A program made the position numbers and the translations under genes. The notes under the pieces are model-generated. The model was not told the origin of the DNA and searched no databases. It worked only from the letters and a program-made list of their open reading frames with translations. Below, piece after piece: positions 2,169 through 11,150 of a stretch of DNA of 64,000 bases (positions are counted from its first letter, which is position 1; each line of letters begins with the position of its first letter). This stretch comes from Myxococcota bacterium. GTDB lineage: Bacteria > Myxococcota_A > UBA796 > CAJQPC01. The DNA lies in NCBI GenBank assembly GCA_036229005.1, contig JAZAMN010000021.1:21680-85679 (forward strand), written 5' to 3'.

Positions 2169-2196
2169 CGCCGACCCCACCCGGGTCGGCGTTTTT
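2169..2196 (+). terminator. Attenuator terminator hairpin
   Basis: CGCCGACCC-CACCC-GGGTCGGCG followed by TTTTT; alternative pairing partner GGGTGGGTCGGTCGC at 2116-2130. Confidence 0.85.
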
Positions 2197-2245
2197 GTGT
2201 CCCACACAGGCGTCACCCCGGGCCCAGGCGAAGCGGAGTCCCGAA

Positions 2246-3112
2246 ATGACCCAAGCTGTGACCCTCCACCTGGCCCTCCCCAAGGGCCGCATGCGCGAAG
2301 GCGTGTTCTCCCTGCTGGAGTCCGCCGGCGTGCGCGTCCGCATCGGCGCGCGCGGCTACCGCCCCACCGTGGGGCTGGAGGCCTGCGAGGCCAAGCTGCT
2401 CAAGCCCCACAACATCGTGGAGATGCTGGATCTGGGCACCCGCGACCTGGGCTTCGCCGGCGCGGACTGGGTGCGCGAGAAGCAGGCCGACCTGGTCGAG
2501 GTCCTGGACCTGGAGCTGGACCCCGTGCGCGTGGTCGCCGCGGCGCCCACCGAGCTCTTGGTGAACGGCGCGCTGCCCAAGCGGCCCCTGCGCATCGCCA
2601 GCGAGTACGCCCGCCTGACCGCCGACTGGGTGGAGCAGCAGGGCCTGGACGCCACCTTCGTGCGCTCCTACGGCGCCACCGAGGTCTTCCCCCCCGAGGA
2701 CGCCGACCTGATCGTGGACAACACCGCGACCGGCGCCACCCTGGCCGCCAACGGGCTGGTGATCGTGGGCGAGGTGATGCGCTCCAGCACGCGCCTGTAC
2801 GCCTCCCAGGCCGCCTGGGCCGACCCCGCGCGCCGCGCCCGCATCGAGGACCTGCGCTTGGTGCTGGACTCGGTGCTCCAGGCCCGCAAGCGCGTGATGG
2901 TCGAGGTGAACGTCAGCGCCGCGGACCTGCCCGGTCTGGTCGAGCTGCTGCCCTGCATGCGCGAGCCCACCGTCTCCGCCCTGCACGGCGGCAGCGGCTT
3001 CGCGGTCAAGGCGGCGGTGCCCCGGCGCGCCCTGCCCACCCTCATTCCCGCGGTGCGCTCCGCGGGGGGCAGCGACATCGTGGTGTCCTCGCTCTCGCAG
3101 ATCGTGCCCTGA
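2246..3112 (+). CDS. hisG: ATP phosphoribosyltransferase, long form
   Basis: LALPKGR, DLGFAGAD, GATE, DLIVDNTATGATLAANGL motifs plus C-terminal regulatory domain; GGAG upstream of ATG 2246. Confidence 0.95.
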   Translation: MTQAVTLHLALPKGRMREGVFSLLESAGVRVRIGARGYRPTVGLEACEAKLLKPHNIVEMLDLGTRDLGFAGADWVREKQADLVEVLDLELDPVRVVAAAPTELLVNGALPKRPLRIASEYARLTADWVEQQGLDATFVRSYGATEVFPPEDADLIVDNTATGATLAANGLVIVGEVMRSSTRLYASQAAWADPARRARIEDLRLVLDSVLQARKRVMVEVNVSAADLPGLVELLPCMREPTVSALHGGSGFAVKAAVPRRALPTLIPAVRSAGGSDIVVSSLSQIVP

Positions 3113-4413
3113 TGCCCGAGCTCATCTGCGCAGCGCGCGTGCGCGGGGGGAGCGCCTACCAGGTTCCTGCCCACCCCGCACCTCTGGACCTGGACCTGCG
3201 CGGGAACGAGGGCGCGCTGCCCGATCCGGGGCTCTTCGCTCACCTGAAGTCCGTGGACCTGCTGCGGCGCTACCCGGACACGCGCCCTCTGCGGGAGGTG
3301 TGCGCGGCGCACTTTGGCGTGGCGCCGGAGCGGGTGCTGATCACGGCGGGGGGCGATGACGGCCTGGACCGCCTGTGCAGAGCCACCCTGGAGCCGGGGC
3401 GGGACCTGCTGATGCCGACGCCGGGCTTCGAGATGACGCGGCGCTACGCGGCGCTGGCGGGGGCGCAGGTGCGGGCGCCGGAGTGGCCGGGGGCGCGCTT
3501 CCCGGTGGAGGCCTGCCTGGAGGCCCTGGACGAGGGCGTGGGCCTGACCGCGCTGACCACCCCGAACAACCCCACGGGCGCGGTGATTGGGAAGGAGAAT
3601 CTTGAAGCGCTGATCACCCGGGCCCAACAGCTCGGCTCGGTGGTGCTCGTGGACCTGGCCTACGTCGAGTTCGCCGACGAGGACCCCACGGCGTGGGCCC
3701 TGGAGTACGAGAACGTGGTGGTGCTGCGCACGCTGTCCAAGGCGTGGGGGCTGGCCGGGCTGCGGGTGGGCGTGATGCTGGGTCACCCCAAGGTGCTGGG
3801 CTGGATGGCCGCCGCGGGGGCCCCCTACGCGGTCGCGGCGCCGAGCCTGGCCCTGGCGCAGGCGGCCGTGGAGCAGATGGCCACCCTCAAGGAGGGCTTC
3901 GTGGCGCAGGTGCGCTCGGAGCGGCTGCAGGTGGCCGCGGCGCTGGAGGCCGCGGGGTGCGCGGTGGTGCCCTCGCAGGCCAACTTCGTGTTCGCGCGCA
4001 GCCCGCGGGCGGCTTGGCTGGCGGACGGGCTGGCCGGCCTGGGCATCGGGGTGCGCAGCTTCCCCGGACAGGCCGGGCTGGAGGACGCGCTGCGGGTGGC
4101 GCTGCCGCCGACGGAGGCGGACGGGGCGCGCCTGCGGGCGGCGCTGCGGACCTGGGCGCAGCCGAGCGCGCTGCTGGTGGACGACGGGGTGTCTCTGGAG
4201 GCGCCGCTGCCCGTGCGCTTTGGGGTGCCTGCGGGTGACCTCGCTGGCGGGTGGGTGCTGTCTGCGGACCCGGCGCGCATCGCAGAGGCCAGGCGGTGTG
4301 CCCTGCTGCCGGTGGGGCTGCGCAGCCCCTCGGTCCCCCAAGAAACGCTCTTTGCAGCCGGGGCGGCCCGGGTGCTCGAGCGGCCTGAACAGATCCTGGA
4401 GCTACTGCCATGA
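3112..4413 (+). CDS. hisC: Histidinol-phosphate aminotransferase with degenerate C-terminal HAD-like extension
   Basis: PNNPTG, DLAYVEF, RTLSKAWGLAGLRVG, SQANF; TGATG coupling to hisG. Confidence 0.92.
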   Translation: MPELICAARVRGGSAYQVPAHPAPLDLDLRGNEGALPDPGLFAHLKSVDLLRRYPDTRPLREVCAAHFGVAPERVLITAGGDDGLDRLCRATLEPGRDLLMPTPGFEMTRRYAALAGAQVRAPEWPGARFPVEACLEALDEGVGLTALTTPNNPTGAVIGKENLEALITRAQQLGSVVLVDLAYVEFADEDPTAWALEYENVVVLRTLSKAWGLAGLRVGVMLGHPKVLGWMAAAGAPYAVAAPSLALAQAAVEQMATLKEGFVAQVRSERLQVAAALEAAGCAVVPSQANFVFARSPRAAWLADGLAGLGIGVRSFPGQAGLEDALRVALPPTEADGARLRAALRTWAQPSALLVDDGVSLEAPLPVRFGVPAGDLAGGWVLSADPARIAEARRCALLPVGLRSPSVPQETLFAAGAARVLERPEQILELLP

Positions 4414-4994: not shown

Positions 4995-6361
4995 AGGTCC
5001 TGATGATCGAGACCGGGCTGGCGAACACCGCCAGCGTCGCCGCTGCCTTCGACCGCCTGGGGGTGCAGGTGGACCGCAGCCAGGACCCGGCCAAGGTGGC
5101 CCAGGCGCCCTTTGTGGTGCTGCCGGGGGTGGGGCACTTCGAGGCGGGGATGCAGGCGCTGCGGGCGTCCAAGCTGGTGGCGCCCCTGCGGGATCGGCTG
5201 CTGCGCGGGCTCCCCACCCTGGGGATCTGCCTGGGGATGCAGCTCCTCTGCGAGGGCAGCGATGAGGCCCCGGGGGTCGAGGGTCTGGGCGTGATCCCCG
5301 CCCGGGTACACCGCCTGGAGTCCTGGAACCTCCCGCACCTGGGTTGGGCCAGCGTCCAAAGCGAGGAAGGGGTGGTGCTGCAGGGCGGCGCGGCCTACTT
5401 CGCGCACTCCTTCGGGCTGCGGGAGCGCCCCGAGGGCTGGCGGGCGGCCTGGGCGCGGCACCACCAGCCCTTCGTGGCCGCGGTCGAGCGGGGCCGGGTG
5501 CTGGGCTGTCAGCTCCACCCCGAGCTCTCCGGGGCCTGGGGGCTGGAGCTGCTGCGGCGCTGGCTGGAGGCGCGCCCGGCGGTGGCGACGCCCCCCACGC
5601 CCGTGGGCCCGCGCATCATCCCCTGCCTGGACGTGCGCGATGGCCGGGTGGTCAAGGGCGTGCGCTTCCAGGGGCTGCGGGACGCCGGGGACCCGGTGGA
5701 GCAGGCGCAGCGCTACGCGGATCAGGGCGCTGACGAGCTGGTGATCCTGGACGTGTCGGCCACGGACGAGGGTCGGGAGACCGCCGCCCAGACGGTGGCT
5801 GCCGTGCGCCAGGTGCTGCCCCTCCCGCTGACGGTGGGCGGCGGCGTGCGCCGGGTGGAGGACGCGGCGCGGCTGCTGGCGGCGGGCGCGGACAAGGTGG
5901 CCTGCAACACCGCGGCCGTGCGGGATCCCGAGCTGCTCACCCGCCTGGCGCGCCAGTTCGGCGAGCAGTGCGTGGTGCTGGCGCTGGACGCCGCCCGCCG
6001 CCTGGACGGGCCGGGCTGGGAGGTGGTCGTGCGCGCCGGCAAGGACCGCACCGGGCAGGACGCCGTGGCCTGGGCCAAGGAGGCCGCGCGGCGGGGAGCG
6101 GGGGAGATCCTGCTGACCTCCTGGGACCGGGACGGCACGGGCAGCGGCTACGACACGGCGCTGCTGGAGGCCACGCGGCAGGCCGTCGCGGTGCCGATCA
6201 TCGCCAGCGGGGGCGCCCGGACGCCCGCGCACCTGGCCGCCGCCTTGAGGGCCGGGGCCGACGCGGTGCTGGCCGCGTCCATCTTCCACGACGGCGTCAC
6301 CAGCGTGGACGCCGTCAAGCGGGCCCTGCGGGACGAGCAGGGCGTGGAGGTGCGGCTGTGA
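4991..6361 (+). CDS. hisHF: Fused imidazole glycerol phosphate synthase HisH-HisF
   Basis: N-half PGVG, GICLGMQ, HPE; C-half RIIPCLDV, VVKG, GADEL, GEILLTS, PIIASGG, LAASIFH in one frame. Confidence 0.93.
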   Translation: MKVLMIETGLANTASVAAAFDRLGVQVDRSQDPAKVAQAPFVVLPGVGHFEAGMQALRASKLVAPLRDRLLRGLPTLGICLGMQLLCEGSDEAPGVEGLGVIPARVHRLESWNLPHLGWASVQSEEGVVLQGGAAYFAHSFGLRERPEGWRAAWARHHQPFVAAVERGRVLGCQLHPELSGAWGLELLRRWLEARPAVATPPTPVGPRIIPCLDVRDGRVVKGVRFQGLRDAGDPVEQAQRYADQGADELVILDVSATDEGRETAAQTVAAVRQVLPLPLTVGGGVRRVEDAARLLAAGADKVACNTAAVRDPELLTRLARQFGEQCVVLALDAARRLDGPGWEVVVRAGKDRTGQDAVAWAKEAARRGAGEILLTSWDRDGTGSGYDTALLEATRQAVAVPIIASGGARTPAHLAAALRAGADAVLAASIFHDGVTSVDAVKRALRDEQGVEVRL

Positions 6362-7644
6362 TCGTACCGAGCATCGACATCCAGGGCGGCAGCACCGTCC
6401 AGCTCATCGGCGGCGAGGAGAAGGCCCTGGACGCCGGCGACCCCCGGGAGATGGCCCGGCAGCTCGGCGTGGTGGGCGAGGTCGCTGTAATCGACCTGGA
6501 CGCCGCGATGGGCACCGGGGACAACGGGGAGCTCATCGCCGAGATCGCCCGGGACCACCGGGTGCGCGTGGGCGGCGGCATCCGCAGCGTGGAGCGAGCC
6601 CGGCAGTGGCTGGATGCGGGGGCTGACCAGATCATCCTGGGCACCGCGGCCCGCCCCGAGCTGCTGCGTCAACTCCCCCGCGAGCGCCTGATCGCCGCCG
6701 TGGACGCCAAGGATGGCGAGGTGGTGGTGGAGGGATGGAAGACGCGCACCGGGGCCCAACTCCTGGAGCGGGTGGCCGCCCTCGCCCCCTACGTGGGCGG
6801 CTTTTTGGTCACCTTCGTCGAGCGCGAGGGCAGGCTGGGCGGCACCGCACTGGAGCAGGTGCCGGCCCTGGTGGAGGCCGCCGGGCAGGCCCGCGTGACC
6901 GTGGCCGGCGGCGTGAGCACGACTGACGAGATCGCCGCGCTGGACCGCCTGGGGGTGGACGCCCAGGTGGGCATGGCGCTCTACACGGGGCGAATGGACC
7001 TGGCCGACGCGCTGGCCGCGCCGCTGCGCTCGGACCGCCCCGACGGGCTGTGGCCCACCGTGGTCTGCGACGTGCACGGGGTCGCCCTGGGTATGGCCTT
7101 CTCGGACGCCGAGAGCCTCCGGGCCGCGGTGGCCGAGCGCAAGGGCATCTACCACTCCCGCCGCCGGGGGCTGTGGGTGAAGGGGGCCTCCTCGGGTGCC
7201 ACCCAGCGTCTGCTGCGGGTGGATGTGGACTGCGATCGCGACGCGCTCCGCTTCATCGTGACCCAGGAACAACCAGGGTTCTGTCACAACGACACCTGGA
7301 GCTGCTGGGGGCCCACCGGGGGCCTGCCTGCGCTGGACCGCACCCTGCGCGCCCGCAAGGCCCAGGCCCCCGCGGGCTCCTACACCGCCCGGCTCTTCCA
7401 GGACCCCGCGCTGCTGCGCGGCAAGCTGATGGAGGAGTCCGGCGAGCTGGCCGCCGCCCGGGGCGCCCAGCGCGCCGCCGAGGAGGCCGCCGACCTGATC
7501 TACTTCGCCCTGGTGGCCGCCCAGGCCCAGGGGGCCGACCTGGCCCAGGTCGCCGCCGAGCTGGACCGCCGCGCGCTGCGCACCACCCGCCGCAAGGGGG
7601 ACGCCAAGCCGCCCCCGCCGCTGCCCACCGAAGGAGGCCGCTGA
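6358..7644 (+). CDS. Fused HisA-HisI-HisE protein
   Basis: GTG start overlapping hisF stop; PSIDI..G..VQL, DLDAA, VGGGIR (HisA); DCDRD, FCH...SC (HisI); SYTARLF, EEAADLIY (HisE). Confidence 0.9.
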   Translation: MIVPSIDIQGGSTVQLIGGEEKALDAGDPREMARQLGVVGEVAVIDLDAAMGTGDNGELIAEIARDHRVRVGGGIRSVERARQWLDAGADQIILGTAARPELLRQLPRERLIAAVDAKDGEVVVEGWKTRTGAQLLERVAALAPYVGGFLVTFVEREGRLGGTALEQVPALVEAAGQARVTVAGGVSTTDEIAALDRLGVDAQVGMALYTGRMDLADALAAPLRSDRPDGLWPTVVCDVHGVALGMAFSDAESLRAAVAERKGIYHSRRRGLWVKGASSGATQRLLRVDVDCDRDALRFIVTQEQPGFCHNDTWSCWGPTGGLPALDRTLRARKAQAPAGSYTARLFQDPALLRGKLMEESGELAAARGAQRAAEEAADLIYFALVAAQAQGADLAQVAAELDRRALRTTRRKGDAKPPPPLPTEGGR

Positions 7645-8906
7645 TGCCCCTGCTCAACGAGATCGCTGTTCAGGACCTGCCCGCGCTGCGCCGCGAGGCC
7701 GTGGACGCCCAGACCCTGGAGCGCGCCGGCGGGATCGTCGACAGCGTGCGCCAGGAGGGCGAGGCGGCGCTGCGCCGCTGGGCCCTGGAGCTGGGCGATG
7801 TGCCCGCCGCCGACGCCCCGCTCGTGGTGGGGCCGGAGGGCCTGCGCGCGGCCTTCGAGTCCCTGAGCCCGCAGGCGCAGGGGGTGCTGGAGCGCACTGC
7901 GGCGCGGATCCGGGCCTTTGCCGACGCGCAGCGGGCCGCCCTGGTGCCGGTGGAGCACCCCGTCCCCGGGGGCGTGGCCGGCCTGCGCTACGCGCCGATG
8001 GAGCGGGTGGGCTGCTACGCCCCCGGTGGGCGCTTCCCGCTGCCGTCCTCGGTGTTGATGACCGCGGTGACCGCCCGCGCTGCGGGGGTGGAGCAGGTGT
8101 GGGTGGCCTCACCCCGGCCGGCGGTGGAGACCCTGGCGGCCGCCCACGTGGCCGGCGCGGACGCGCTGCTCTGCGTCGGCGGCGCCCAGGCCATCGCGGC
8201 GCTGGCCTTCGGCGCTGGCCCGGTGCCCGCCGTGGACTGCATCGTGGGCCCGGGGAACCGCTGGGTGACCGCCGCCAAGCAGCTCGTGGCCGGGCGGGTG
8301 AGCATCGACATGCTGGCCGGCCCCAGCGAGCTGGTGGTGCTGGCCGACGACGCCGCCGACCCCGCGCGGGTGGCCGCCGATCTGCTGGCCCAGGCCGAGC
8401 ACGACCCGGACGCGCTGCCGATCGTGGTCAGCCTCAGCGCCGGGCTGCTGGAGCGGGTGGATGCCGCGCTCCGGGAGCAGCTCCGCACCCTGCCCACGGC
8501 GGAGATCGCCCAGCAGGCCCTCGCCGGCGGATTCAGCGTCGTGGTTGAGGACCTGGAGCAGGGCTGTGCGGTGTGCGACCAGCTTGCGCCCGAACACCTG
8601 GCCGTTCACCTCTCCGACCCCCAGCCGGCCCAGGACCTGCTGCGGCACTACGGCGCGCTCTTTGTGGGGGAGGCGGCCGCAGAGGTGCTGGGGGACTACG
8701 GCGCGGGGCCCAACCACGTCCTGCCCACCGGGGGCACGGCCCGCAGCGTGGGGGCGCTCTCGGTGTCCACCTTCTTGCGGGTGCAGACCTGGCTGCGGCT
8801 GGACGCTCCGGAGCAGGCCGCGGAGCTGGTGCAGGACTGCGTGGACCTGGCCCGGATGGAGGGGCTGGAGGCCCACGCCCGCGCCGCCGAGCAGCGCCTG
8901 GTCTGA
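7644..8906 (+). CDS. hisD: Histidinol dehydrogenase
   Basis: YAPGG, PSSVLM, GGAQA, GPGN, DMLAGPSE, QAEHD, APEHL, GDYGAGPNHVLPT. Confidence 0.97.
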   Translation: MPLLNEIAVQDLPALRREAVDAQTLERAGGIVDSVRQEGEAALRRWALELGDVPAADAPLVVGPEGLRAAFESLSPQAQGVLERTAARIRAFADAQRAALVPVEHPVPGGVAGLRYAPMERVGCYAPGGRFPLPSSVLMTAVTARAAGVEQVWVASPRPAVETLAAAHVAGADALLCVGGAQAIAALAFGAGPVPAVDCIVGPGNRWVTAAKQLVAGRVSIDMLAGPSELVVLADDAADPARVAADLLAQAEHDPDALPIVVSLSAGLLERVDAALREQLRTLPTAEIAQQALAGGFSVVVEDLEQGCAVCDQLAPEHLAVHLSDPQPAQDLLRHYGALFVGEAAAEVLGDYGAGPNHVLPTGGTARSVGALSVSTFLRVQTWLRLDAPEQAAELVQDCVDLARMEGLEAHARAAEQRLV

Positions 8907-8915
8907 GTCGGGGAG

Positions 8916-9920
8916 TCAGTCCACGAGGGTCTGTACCCACGCGCGCACCTGGCCGTCGCCGGGGTGTACGCGCAGGGTCTGGCCCTCGGCGTAGCTGGTG
9001 GCGCTGGGGCAGCCGGAGGCGGTGAGGGTGGTGCGGGCGCGCTCGTTGCCGGCGCGGTCGTAGGCCACATAGGTCACCGGGACCAGCTCGGTGGGCATGA
9101 TGAAGCTGCCGCTGATGCCGTCGATGCTGCTGTAGACGCAGTCCTTGAAGGGCTTGGGCGTGCCCTCAGCGGCGATCGCGACGAAGAGGTCCGCCTCGCG
9201 CAGGTTGAGGCCGTCAGCGGGGCCCGCGCTCCAGAAGTGCTCGCCGGTGCGGAAGACCGCCACCTTGGGGTCGGGGGTGGGGGCCGAGAGCCCCTGGAGG
9301 GTGCCGGGCAGGCCGGAGAAGAAGGCGCCCATGGGGCTGCCGCGGAAGGAGGCCTTCAGGGTGGCGGAGAGGGGCTCGCCGTCGGGGGACTTGACGACCA
9401 CGGGGAGCTCGAGCGCGACCCGCTTGAGGCCGAAGCTGCTCTTTGTGGTCAGGGGGGCGTCCAGGGCCAGGTGCGCGAAGGGGATGCGCAGGGCGTCGTC
9501 GGTCAGCACCACGCCTTCGCCTTCCACGCTGAGGCCCGGCAGCGGGTCCACCGTGACCTGGATCGCGCCGTCCACAATGGGGCACTCCGTTTCGATGAAG
9601 CCCCTGTCGCCCTTGTCCATCACGGTGGCCTCTCCGCCCTCGCAGCTCGGCATCAGGGCTTGAGCGACGCCGATCGTGGTGTTCACCGTTGGCGGGTTCT
9701 CGCCGAAGTCGCCGCCGAGTGTCCAGGTGTTGCGCCCGGTCTGCATGGCGCTGCGGGGGATGGTGATGGTCTGGCCGTGGGTGACCGTTTGCCCAGCGAG
9801 GGTGGCGCTGTCGATGTCCCAGAGGTGCACCTTGACCGGCAGCCCCTCGGGGGCCACGCCGCCGTACTCCGTGGCGGCGGAGGGGTTGGGGGCGCAGGCG
9901 AGCAGAAGCAGCAGGGGCAT
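8916..9920 (-). CDS. Uncharacterised lipoprotein (paralog A)
   Basis: MPLLLLLAC signal; shares blocks with 16901-17902. Confidence 0.75.
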   Translation of the reverse strand: MPLLLLLACAPNPSAATEYGGVAPEGLPVKVHLWDIDSATLAGQTVTHGQTITIPRSAMQTGRNTWTLGGDFGENPPTVNTTIGVAQALMPSCEGGEATVMDKGDRGFIETECPIVDGAIQVTVDPLPGLSVEGEGVVLTDDALRIPFAHLALDAPLTTKSSFGLKRVALELPVVVKSPDGEPLSATLKASFRGSPMGAFFSGLPGTLQGLSAPTPDPKVAVFRTGEHFWSAGPADGLNLREADLFVAIAAEGTPKPFKDCVYSSIDGISGSFIMPTELVPVTYVAYDRAGNERARTTLTASGCPSATSYAEGQTLRVHPGDGQVRAWVQTLVD

Positions 9921-9947: not shown

Positions 9948-11150
9948 CTAATGCCGTAGGGCGTCGATGGGCTCCATCCGGGCGGCGCGGCGGGCCGGGT
10001 ACCAGCCAAAGCCCACACCCACCAGGGCCGAGAACACCACAGCGATCAGCACCACCGGCAGGTTGAACACAAAGGGCACCTCCAGCAGGTGGGCCCCCAG
10101 GTAGGAGCCGCCGATCCCCAGGAGCACCCCCAGCACGCCGCCCATCGCGGACAGCAGGCTGGCCTCCACCAGGAACTGGGTCATCACGTCGCGCTCCAGG
10201 GCGCCGATGGCCATGCGGATGCCGATCTCGCGGGTGCGCTCGGTCACGGAGACCAGCATGATGTTCATGACGCCGATGCCGCCCACCAGCAGGCTCACGC
10301 CGGCCACCGCGCCCAGGAAGGCCGTCAGGGTCGTGGTGATGCCCGAGACCATCTGGGCCATCTCGCGGGTGTCGTGCACCTGGAAGTCGTCGCTGCGGTT
10401 GGCGGGCAGGTGGCGGCGCTCGCGCATCAGGGCGGTCACGTCCTGCTGCACCCGGGAGATGTTGTCCGAGGTGTCGGCGCTGACCTGGATGCTGGCGACC
10501 TCGTTGTTGCCCGTCAGGCGGCGCTGGACCGTGGTCAGGGGGGCGAACACCAGGTCGTCCTGGTCCATGCCCATCGTGTTGGCGCCCTTGGCCTCCAGCA
10601 GCCCGATCACCGTGCAGCTCATGTTGTTGACCTGGATCTTCGCGCCCAGGGCCGCCTCGCCGCCGAAGAGGGTCTCGCGGGTGGTCTCGCCGATCAGGCA
10701 CACCGCCGCGCCCGCCGTCTGCTCGGTCTCGGTGGGCATGCGCCCAGAGGCGACGGAGCGGTTGGAGACCTCGAACCACGGGTTGGTCGAACCGTACACG
10801 GTCGTGGTGGTGTCCTCACCGGCGTAGACGATCTGCGCTGAAGTCGAGGACACCGGCGCGACGGCCGCCACGTGCTGCACCTGCTGGTAGATGGCCTCGG
10901 CGTCCTTGGCCTTGAAGTTGGGGGCGTCGCCGCGCGAGCCCGGACCGCGGCCGCCGCCGGGGTGGACGGACAGCAGGTTGTTCCCCATGGACGCCAGGTC
11001 CTCTTCGACCGACGCGGTGGCCCCCTGGCCGATGCCGACCATGGCGATCACGGCGGCGACGCCGATCAGGATGCCCAGAGCCGTCAGGATCGAGCGGCTG
11101 AGGTTGCGGCGGATCTCGTTGAGCGCGATGCGCAGGGCGTTCCACAACAT
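9948..11150 (-). CDS. MacB-family ABC permease
   Basis: LGILIGVAAVI; VGGIGVMNIMLVSVTERTREIGIRMAIGA; PARRAA..EPIDALR. Confidence 0.95.
   Translation of the reverse strand: MLWNALRIALNEIRRNLSRSILTALGILIGVAAVIAMVGIGQGATASVEEDLASMGNNLLSVHPGGGRGPGSRGDAPNFKAKDAEAIYQQVQHVAAVAPVSSTSAQIVYAGEDTTTTVYGSTNPWFEVSNRSVASGRMPTETEQTAGAAVCLIGETTRETLFGGEAALGAKIQVNNMSCTVIGLLEAKGANTMGMDQDDLVFAPLTTVQRRLTGNNEVASIQVSADTSDNISRVQQDVTALMRERRHLPANRSDDFQVHDTREMAQMVSGITTTLTAFLGAVAGVSLLVGGIGVMNIMLVSVTERTREIGIRMAIGALERDVMTQFLVEASLLSAMGGVLGVLLGIGGSYLGAHLLEVPFVFNLPVVLIAVVFSALVGVGFGWYPARRAARMEPIDALRH

Follow-up and report, generated by a model that had tools for sequence, protein, structure and literature searches.

Where did the fungal histidine enzyme His4 obtain its architecture, and what is the domain that lies at its N-terminus? 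The question is raised by a histidine operon in a 64,000-nucleotide stretch of genomic DNA from a Myxococcota bacterium (GenBank assembly GCA_036229005.1, contig JAZAMN010000021.1, positions 21,680 to 85,679 of the forward strand), which we call the window and in which positions are counted from the first letter. A single open reading frame (ORF) of this operon, hisAIE, joins a HisA barrel to HisI and HisE, and hisD follows through a TGATG overlap (Table 1). An earlier note, made from the letters alone, had pointed out this arrangement, and the Pfam domains and coordinates bear it out. In our judgement it is likely that hisAIE encodes a three-step enzyme within a coupled operon, that it belongs to a bacterial family of such fusions, that eukaryotes acquired their forms by transfer, that a relic of HisA persists in His4, and that the HisD of His4 came separately.

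The HisA part of the window protein carries the residues D7 and D116, the GGG loop G72–G74 and the pair G184–G185, each of which is kept in 72–73 of 73 bacterial fusion domains; these per-site counts refer to the bacterial domains, the fungal positions being mostly left unaligned by hmmalign. From HisA structures, we take D7 and D116 to be the catalytic aspartate pair and the glycine loops to bind phosphate. In the remainder of the chain, the PRA-CH domain is followed by the PRA-PH domain, as in bifunctional HisIE enzymes. Zinc/magnesium and EExxE-type motifs, as in ordinary HisIE, are readable in this sequence. All three domains score below the NCBIfam equivalog cut-offs (HisA with 143.7 bits against 228.95 for TIGR00007 and 154.4 against 243 for NF010112; HisIE with 115.6 against 187 for NF002747), and hisAIE therefore represents a divergent subfamily. 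The protein is predicted to catalyze three consecutive steps, from phosphoribosyl-ATP (PR-ATP) to phosphoribosyl-AMP (PR-AMP), on to phosphoribosylformimino-AICAR phosphate (ProFAR) and from there to its phosphoribulosyl isomer (PRFAR). Such a fusion of three activities would set their amounts at 1:1:1 and keep each intermediate near the next active site.

The IE part of the window protein is closer to fungal His4 than to ordinary bacterial HisIE. It is 52–60% identical to 17 fungal His4 proteins (216–236 bits) versus 28–38% to 11 ordinary HisIE or HisI proteins (47–96 bits; E. coli, 34%). Among solved structures, the best match is the Shigella HisIE 6j22 with 71 bits, and Medicago HISN2 gives 49 bits. 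The motifs RRxGxAK, [ST]DRxDGL and GFCH are present in 25–29 of 32 bacterial fusions and in 14–17 of 17 fungal His4 proteins; none of nine ordinary HisIE proteins has them, and across the whole motif set that the earlier note had listed these nine show one GSYT only. The claimed affinity of the IE part to His4 thus holds by identity, by motifs and by a 100/92 split in the tree described below, and the motifs serve as markers of the clade.

A search with the IE part alone, limited to proteins of more than 749 amino acids (aa), shows what else this module is joined to. Its best 120 matches comprise 49 four-domain HisA-IE-D proteins of 823–950 aa, the named ones of which come from bacterial metagenome-assembled genomes (MAGs), 67 three-domain IE-D proteins that have no Pfam HisA match, and 4 larger fusions. 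Nearly all the named members of the group of 67 are fungal His4 proteins (51–60% identity to the IE part) from chytrids, Mucoromycota, Mortierellomycota, Basidiomycota and Ascomycota. Fungal His4, like the split His7 of Schizosaccharomyces, which consists of an N-terminal domain and IE, has the same domain order as the window protein, but its copy of the first domain lacks the catalytic signature that is intact in the window. Ordinary HisIE enzymes (E. coli hisI, Shigella 6j22) represent the same three catalytic domains with HisA unfused.

The fungal N-terminal domain can be traced to HisA by several routes. We built a hidden Markov model (HMM) from 73 bacterial fusion HisA domains, and it matched 16 of 67 fungal N-termini at E < 0.01, with a best value of 2.3e-8. 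In a profile–profile comparison with hhalign, from which 7 of 49 four-domain and 3 of 120 three-domain proteins without the cut motif were left out, the fungal N-terminus aligned with bacterial HisA at 97.7% (E 1.5e-12, 181 columns, template 1–224, query 8–208). With the first 12 and the last 25 residues removed, the values were 95.5% and E 1.5e-8, and the reversed fungal control gave 0.1% and E 0.51. Single pairwise BLAST alignments run across the A/IE junction, covering window residues 85–418 in Linnemannia His4 and 77–417 in Schizosaccharomyces japonicus His7. The fungal proteins start with MIIPRINI, MILPSLSL or MLVPAITI, where bacterial fusions have MIIPSIDI or IVPSIDI; the catalytic aspartate and the GGGIR loop have been lost in fungi. 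An AlphaFold2 model of S. japonicus His7 (414 aa, mean predicted local distance difference test score 92.3), computed from a 72-row alignment of His4/His7-type proteins that held no bacterial HisA sequence, displays eight strand-helix units in residues 1–200. When this model was submitted to Foldseek, the best matches after those to HisIE were HisF (2.6e-5 and 6.1e-5), followed by HisF-LUCA and Salmonella HisA.

Could this likeness have arisen by chance, or be the general resemblance that one (βα)8 barrel of the triosephosphate isomerase (TIM) type bears to another of different origin? The Foldseek E-values of other TIM barrels lie close to those of HisF and HisA (2.6e-5 and up). The Pfam HisA model, with E allowed up to 10, finds the fungal N-terminus in 1 of 12 proteins (E 0.082) and misses it in 11, which is why the domain went unrecognised before. 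A protein language-model search of the ESM Atlas with the Linnemannia N-terminus returned only a 0.76 match, to fragments of its own kind. Against this stand the contrast between the full, trimmed and reversed hhalign comparisons, the matches to the bacterial HMM and the BLAST alignments that continue unbroken into IE, and the domain occupies the same position and order as the intact HisA of amoebozoan proteins. We regard a chance or generic origin of the likeness as extremely improbable. The His4 N-terminal domain is likely a decayed HisA, as the earlier note had suggested.

Related multidomain proteins come from several other eukaryotes (domains are given in order by their His letters). Protostelium nocturnum has A-IE-D-HisC-HAD (P0242, 1501 aa), Clastostelium recurvatum A-IE-HisG (P0243), Arcella intermedia IE-D-HisC (P0363), Salpingoeca urceolata x-A-IE (P0315), Sulcionema specki x-A-IE with a weak HisA (P0292) and Tribonema minus x-IE (P0345); P0154, encoded on a contig, is an H-F-A-IE-D-G protein of 1730 aa. 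The HisA signature residues that were checked are all kept in Protostelium, Clastostelium and P0154. Further polyproteins occur among the relatives P0245, P0236, P0188 and P0156 (A-IE-D-HisC-HAD, 1586 aa; H-F-A-IE-HisB, 1160 aa; x-IE-HisC-HAD, 1014 aa; IE-D-HisG, 986 aa), and several polyproteins come from metagenome contigs.

P0154 reads like the window operon in one chain: HisHF (53% identity over 453 aa at the N-terminus of P0154), HisA-IE (58%) and HisD (54%) of the window match consecutive parts of it. The same architecture has been described for a heptafunctional histidine protein of Acanthamoeba (HisH-F, A, I, E, D, G), which was verified by polymerase chain reaction (Rice et al. 2018, PMC6029752). 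The order HisH-HisF-HisA-HisI-HisE-HisD is that of the window genes, with the difference that it is a single polypeptide in the amoebae and three cistrons with GTGA and TGATG overlaps in the window. The HisD of the amoebozoan polyproteins is of the window type, and the likeness to the Acanthamoeba form rests on P0154 rather than on an Acanthamoeba sequence.

A careful IQ-TREE analysis of the IE part (LG+C20+F+G4, 90 rows × 212 columns) separates ordinary HisIE from all HisA-IE types at 100/92. The first branches on the HisA-IE side are divergent forms, two of which come from genomes of the window's own phylum; they are followed by a crown (99/90), inside which a 29-row clade contains the eukaryotes (99/89). 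This clade consists of all 17 fungi, four other eukaryotes, seven multidomain proteins including those of Arcella and Salpingoeca, and a EukProt protein; fungi, Amoebozoa, a choanoflagellate, a diplonemid and a stramenopile are represented. P0154 is sister to the fungi (97/81). In the best tree the eukaryote clade is sister to a Geminicoccaceae clade (97/96), and the window pairs with a Myxococcota MAG (97/99) within a polytomy of the bacterial crown. A quick tree of A and IE together (50 rows × 427 columns) recovers the clade of eukaryotes and polyproteins at 97. On these sequences, the eukaryotic enzymes would belong inside the bacterial HisA-IE radiation, their exact bacterial sister being unsettled. 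We considered Geminicoccaceae as the donor and dropped the claim, given that the approximately unbiased (AU) test does not reject monophyly of the bacterial crown (p 0.42). In view of the place of the window in the crown polytomy, the Geminicoccaceae sister in the best tree and this AU result, the suggestion that the lineage of the window stands specially close to the source of the eukaryotic enzyme is not supported.

The HisD domain has a different history. In a quick HisD tree (75 rows × 440 columns), a 29-row clade supported at 99, here called window type, holds all HisD proteins adjacent to or fused with bacterial HisA-IE together with those of Protostelium, Arcella, P0154, P0156 and P0245. 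Fungal HisD domains, 17 in all, form a group of their own (100) that joins E. coli HisD (99) among ordinary HisD. A tree in which fungal and window-type HisD are held together is worse by 97 log-likelihood units (AU p 0.0015, for groups that were chosen after the tree was known). Fused bacterial HisD rows are scattered over the tree, and the fusion of hisD has therefore happened repeatedly.

These results bear on the simplest account of His4, in which the whole fungal protein descends from a bacterial four-domain HisA-IE-D fusion and the window stands literally one base from its ancestor. Bacterial four-domain fusions match His4 in length class; in most related loci hisAIE is followed downstream by hisD, and in 4 of 80 the two are fused; and P0154, a protein with both A-IE and D, is the sister of the fungi in the IE tree. 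The HisD tree speaks against this account, since the two HisD types fall into separate, well-supported groups whose union is costly, and the scattered fusions speak of repeated events instead of one ancestral one; we consider whole-protein descent very improbable. The earlier note had described the gene as one base from being fused to HisD. It is correct that one base inserted ahead of the hisAIE TGA would put both genes in one frame, but the likeness to His4 that this implies is superficial: hisAIE and hisD are separate ORFs in different frames, HisD is not covalently fused in the window, and it belongs to another HisD lineage than the His4 domain. The TGATG overlap is the operon's ordinary coupling signal and no sign of incipient fusion, because the hisG/hisC junction (3110–3114) has the same one.

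How widespread is the fusion among bacteria? In a word-indexed search in which 7998 candidates were scored, each of the best 120 clusters is a single three-domain protein of 417–459 aa with 64–99% identity to the window protein, and the fusion is therefore not an assembly slip. Those clusters that carry names belong to MAGs of Myxococcota, Bradymonadia or 'Deltaproteobacteria'. When cluster representatives were searched exhaustively, 457 proteins matched at E ≤ 1e-30, with full-length three-domain relatives down to 33% identity. Contigs from one genome per species contained at least 599 stretches with two peptide patterns derived from a closer 9-sequence alignment, at least 539 of which were confirmed; 80 loci with 60–74% identity were kept. 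They are found in Myxococcota, Planctomycetota/Phycisphaerae, Alphaproteobacteria, Gemmatimonadales (Gemmatimonadota) and MAGs labelled 'Bdellovibrionales', the alphaproteobacterial ones including Geminicoccaceae with the cultured Marinimicrococcus flavescens. The gene is an unexceptional member of a bacterial fusion family that is large and has been little described.

The setting of the gene is conserved as well. A HisH or HisF match lies immediately upstream of hisAIE in 78 of the 80 kept loci, the order HF-AIE-D is found in 59 and B-HF-AIE-D in 52. The hisD gene has its own ORF in 58 loci, is fused to hisAIE in 4 (with one partial match among them) and is missing from the locus in 18, which take in every Geminicoccaceae locus; hisH and hisF share one frame in 8 and are separate in 65. 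Within the window's phylum, PRA-CH is present in 110 of 151 sampled genomes and falls into an ordinary class (99–125 bits, mostly in frames of less than 300 aa) and a window-type class (80–97 bits, mostly in frames of 420–970 aa); HisD shows the same split into two classes. Among five sampled genomes of the window's own family, PRA-CH was found in one (G050) and not in G014, G020, G102 or G112. The family genomes that lack it are 95–100% complete, and a HisD match is missing in 2 of 3, so the histidine pathway is patchy even among close kin. The deep-branching HisA-IE fusions L109 and L116 (from the phylum-mates G058 and G109, respectively), P0300, P0318 and P0337 do not carry the His4-type motifs, and their HisI part is ordinary-like in score (about 114–117 bits for L109 and L116). 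The fusion therefore predates the His4-type crown.

This distribution can also be turned around: the fusion might have a long history in eukaryotes, and one of them might have passed it to the crown bacteria (Myxococcota, Planctomycetota, Geminicoccaceae and others). The eukaryote clade spans five groups, from fungi to a stramenopile, crown bacteria of different phyla are 60–74% identical and patchily distributed, down to one in five genomes of the window's own family, and the AU test permits eukaryotes outside the bacterial crown. There is also a precedent, in that Fani et al. 2007 (PMC1963479) report HisHF fusions in two delta-proteobacteria and propose a plant-to-bacterium transfer. However, the lineages diverging below the crown belong to bacteria or to metagenome contigs, with L109 and L116 in genomes of the window's phylum, the best IE tree nests the eukaryotes within the crown at 97/96, and the B-H-F-AIE-D operon setting, in which 65 of 80 loci have hisH and hisF as separate genes, has the look of a native bacterial arrangement. 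We judge transfer from eukaryotes to bacteria to be unlikely, though less so than the two alternatives discussed above.

Several points weigh against transfer from bacteria, or against parts of the reading built on it. The AU test allows all 38 bacterial crown rows to form one clade apart from the eukaryotes (p 0.42, a log-likelihood difference of 9.3), and in the A+IE quick tree the crown is a polytomy that leaves open which lineage is sister to the eukaryotes. Outgroups are few, consisting of E. coli and ordinary HisIE from the window's phylum, and the trees contain neither S. cerevisiae His4 nor a plant HISN2 sequence. Several 'eukaryotic' rows derive from transcriptomes or metagenome contigs, where contamination is possible. 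To these must be added the sub-threshold NCBIfam scores of all three domains, the crowded Foldseek list and near-silent Pfam model for the fungal N-terminus, and the post hoc grouping in the HisD test, all given above.

Combining the evidence on both sides, we favor the following course of events. Fungal His4 and Schizosaccharomyces His7, the amoebozoan A-IE-D polyproteins and the choanoflagellate, diplonemid and stramenopile forms would constitute one clade within the bacterial HisA-IE family. Most likely, an early eukaryote received the A-IE unit from a bacterium, and perhaps HF and D with it, although the direction is itself part of what we infer. In fungi, which have a separate HisA in His6, the HisA barrel would presumably for that reason have lost its catalytic signature, and it would live on as the 'unknown' domain at the N-terminus of His4. 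The HisD domain of His4 would be an independent addition from a different HisD lineage, and in bacteria and Amoebozoa the neighboring window-type hisD would have been fused on several times. A more far-reaching version is possible, though we think it less likely than not: an early eukaryote may have taken the hisH/F-hisAIE-hisD segment whole and welded it into a polyprotein that Amoebozoa retain nearly complete, while fungi would have kept A-IE only, allowed its HisA barrel to decay and re-fused a HisD from another lineage, which would make His4 a fossil of the transition from operon to polyprotein.

The operon hisG-hisC-hisB-hisHF-hisAIE-hisD (Table 1) comprises a complete histidine set in which every junction overlaps by 1–4 bases: besides the two TGATG junctions, hisC/hisB has ATGA, hisHF/hisAIE has GTGA and the remaining one has ATGA or GTGA. 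The window has a G+C content of about 72%. For hisG, the ATG at 2246 is a likelier start than the TTG at 2195 with which the listed ORF begins. A promoter and terminator scan returned no promoter-like site and three terminator-like matches, all within genes, against 0.9 expected.

Table 1. Features of the histidine operon in the window, with positions on the window scale and the matches that identify them.
Feature	Position	Strand	Evidence
hisG, long-form ATP phosphoribosyltransferase	2195..3112	+	NCBIfam TIGR00070, 140.7 bits; HisG C-terminal domain, 74.9 bits
hisC, histidinol-phosphate aminotransferase, 433 aa	3112..4413	+	Aminotran_1_2, 137 bits; TIGR01141, 216 bits
hisB, imidazoleglycerol-phosphate dehydratase, 194 aa	4410..4994	+	IGPD, 204.5 bits
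hisHF, glutamine amidotransferase fused to cyclase, 456 aa	4991..6361	+	TIGR01855 (HisH), residues 3–193; TIGR00735 (HisF), residues 208–455
hisAIE, one ORF of 428 aa, GTG start	6358..7644	+	three Pfam domains
HisA (ProFAR isomerase) barrel, residues 1–213 of HisAIE	6358..6996	+	PF00977 (His_biosynth), 140.2 bits, profile positions 1–227 of 228
HisI (PR-AMP cyclohydrolase), residues 246–317 of HisAIE	7093..7308	+	PF01502 (PRA-CH), 76.9 bits
HisE (PR-ATP pyrophosphohydrolase), residues 324–405 of HisAIE	7327..7572	+	PF01503 (PRA-PH), 62.8 bits
TGATG stop/start overlap of hisAIE and hisD	7642..7646	+	TGA 7642–7644, ATG 7644–7646, read from the sequence
hisD, histidinol dehydrogenase of the window type, 420 aa, ATG start	7644..8906	+	PF00815 (Histidinol_dh), 431 bits

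Some features of the neighboring genes deserve separate mention. The idea that HisHF is specially yeast-like was ruled out: its HisF part scores 239–291 bits against natural prokaryotic HisF and the reconstructed HisF-LUCA versus 173 bits against yeast His7. The C-terminal 85 or so residues of hisC (4160–4413, + strand), past the aminotransferase domain, have no Pfam match; in eukaryote-type relatives, a HAD phosphatase domain comes after HisC. Convergent on the end of hisD is a 334-aa ORF (8916–9920, − strand) that has no Pfam match, beyond which lies a MacB/FtsX-type ABC permease (9948–11150, − strand).

The genome to which the window belongs (6.4 Mb, 74 contigs, 94% complete) has one PRA-CH match, that of hisAIE, and one strong PRA-PH match, again in hisAIE, with two weak ones elsewhere; hisG (PF01634) and hisD are single. 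His_biosynth matches are the HisF half of HisHF, the window HisA, a HisF-like paralog and one sub-threshold match of 21.8 bits, and no second ORF that reads as HisA was found in this 94% complete assembly. The HisF-like paralog, a barrel on another contig (L002, C52, 1447–2888, − strand), scores 227 bits as HisF and 208 bits as WbuZ. It adjoins a 232-aa HAD hydrolase whose match to TIGR01548 is weak (54.6 bits, cut-off 140); one source applies this family name to the HAD end of polyprotein P0245. The hydrolase is a candidate for the missing histidinol-phosphate phosphatase.

Earlier studies had come close to the bacterial family from two sides. Fani et al. 2007 (PMC1963479) described the N-terminus of HIS4 as 160–220 residues with no conserved domain and with PSI-BLAST matches only to HIS4, and reported that prokaryotes had yielded no HIS4-like protein. 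The similarity network of Witek et al. 2021 (PMC8102479) placed HIS4 'from orders close to Myxococcales' on the basis of its IE domains, and the same paper mentions trifunctional PRA-PH/PRA-CH/ProFAR-isomerase proteins in some Gammaproteobacteria and Spirochaetia; the available sections of it differ from the present analysis in giving no tree, no treatment of the His4 N-terminal domain and no separate treatment of HisD. A HisA origin of the His4 N-terminus is likewise absent from the accessible parts of Del Duca et al. 2020 (PMC7284861) and of a 2023 review (PMC10138114), and we found no paper proposing it in the full-text literature, a coverage that leaves out subscription journals and supplements.

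Histidine biosynthesis is a textbook case of how gene fusions shape pathways, and the window, together with its many relatives, supplies the missing intermediate that would explain the first domain of His4. It is now possible to test where that N-terminal domain and the His4-type enzymes of eukaryotes came from, and to test the recurrent fusion of hisD. If its predicted activity is borne out, the intact bacterial three-step enzyme could serve to study channelling between fused consecutive steps.

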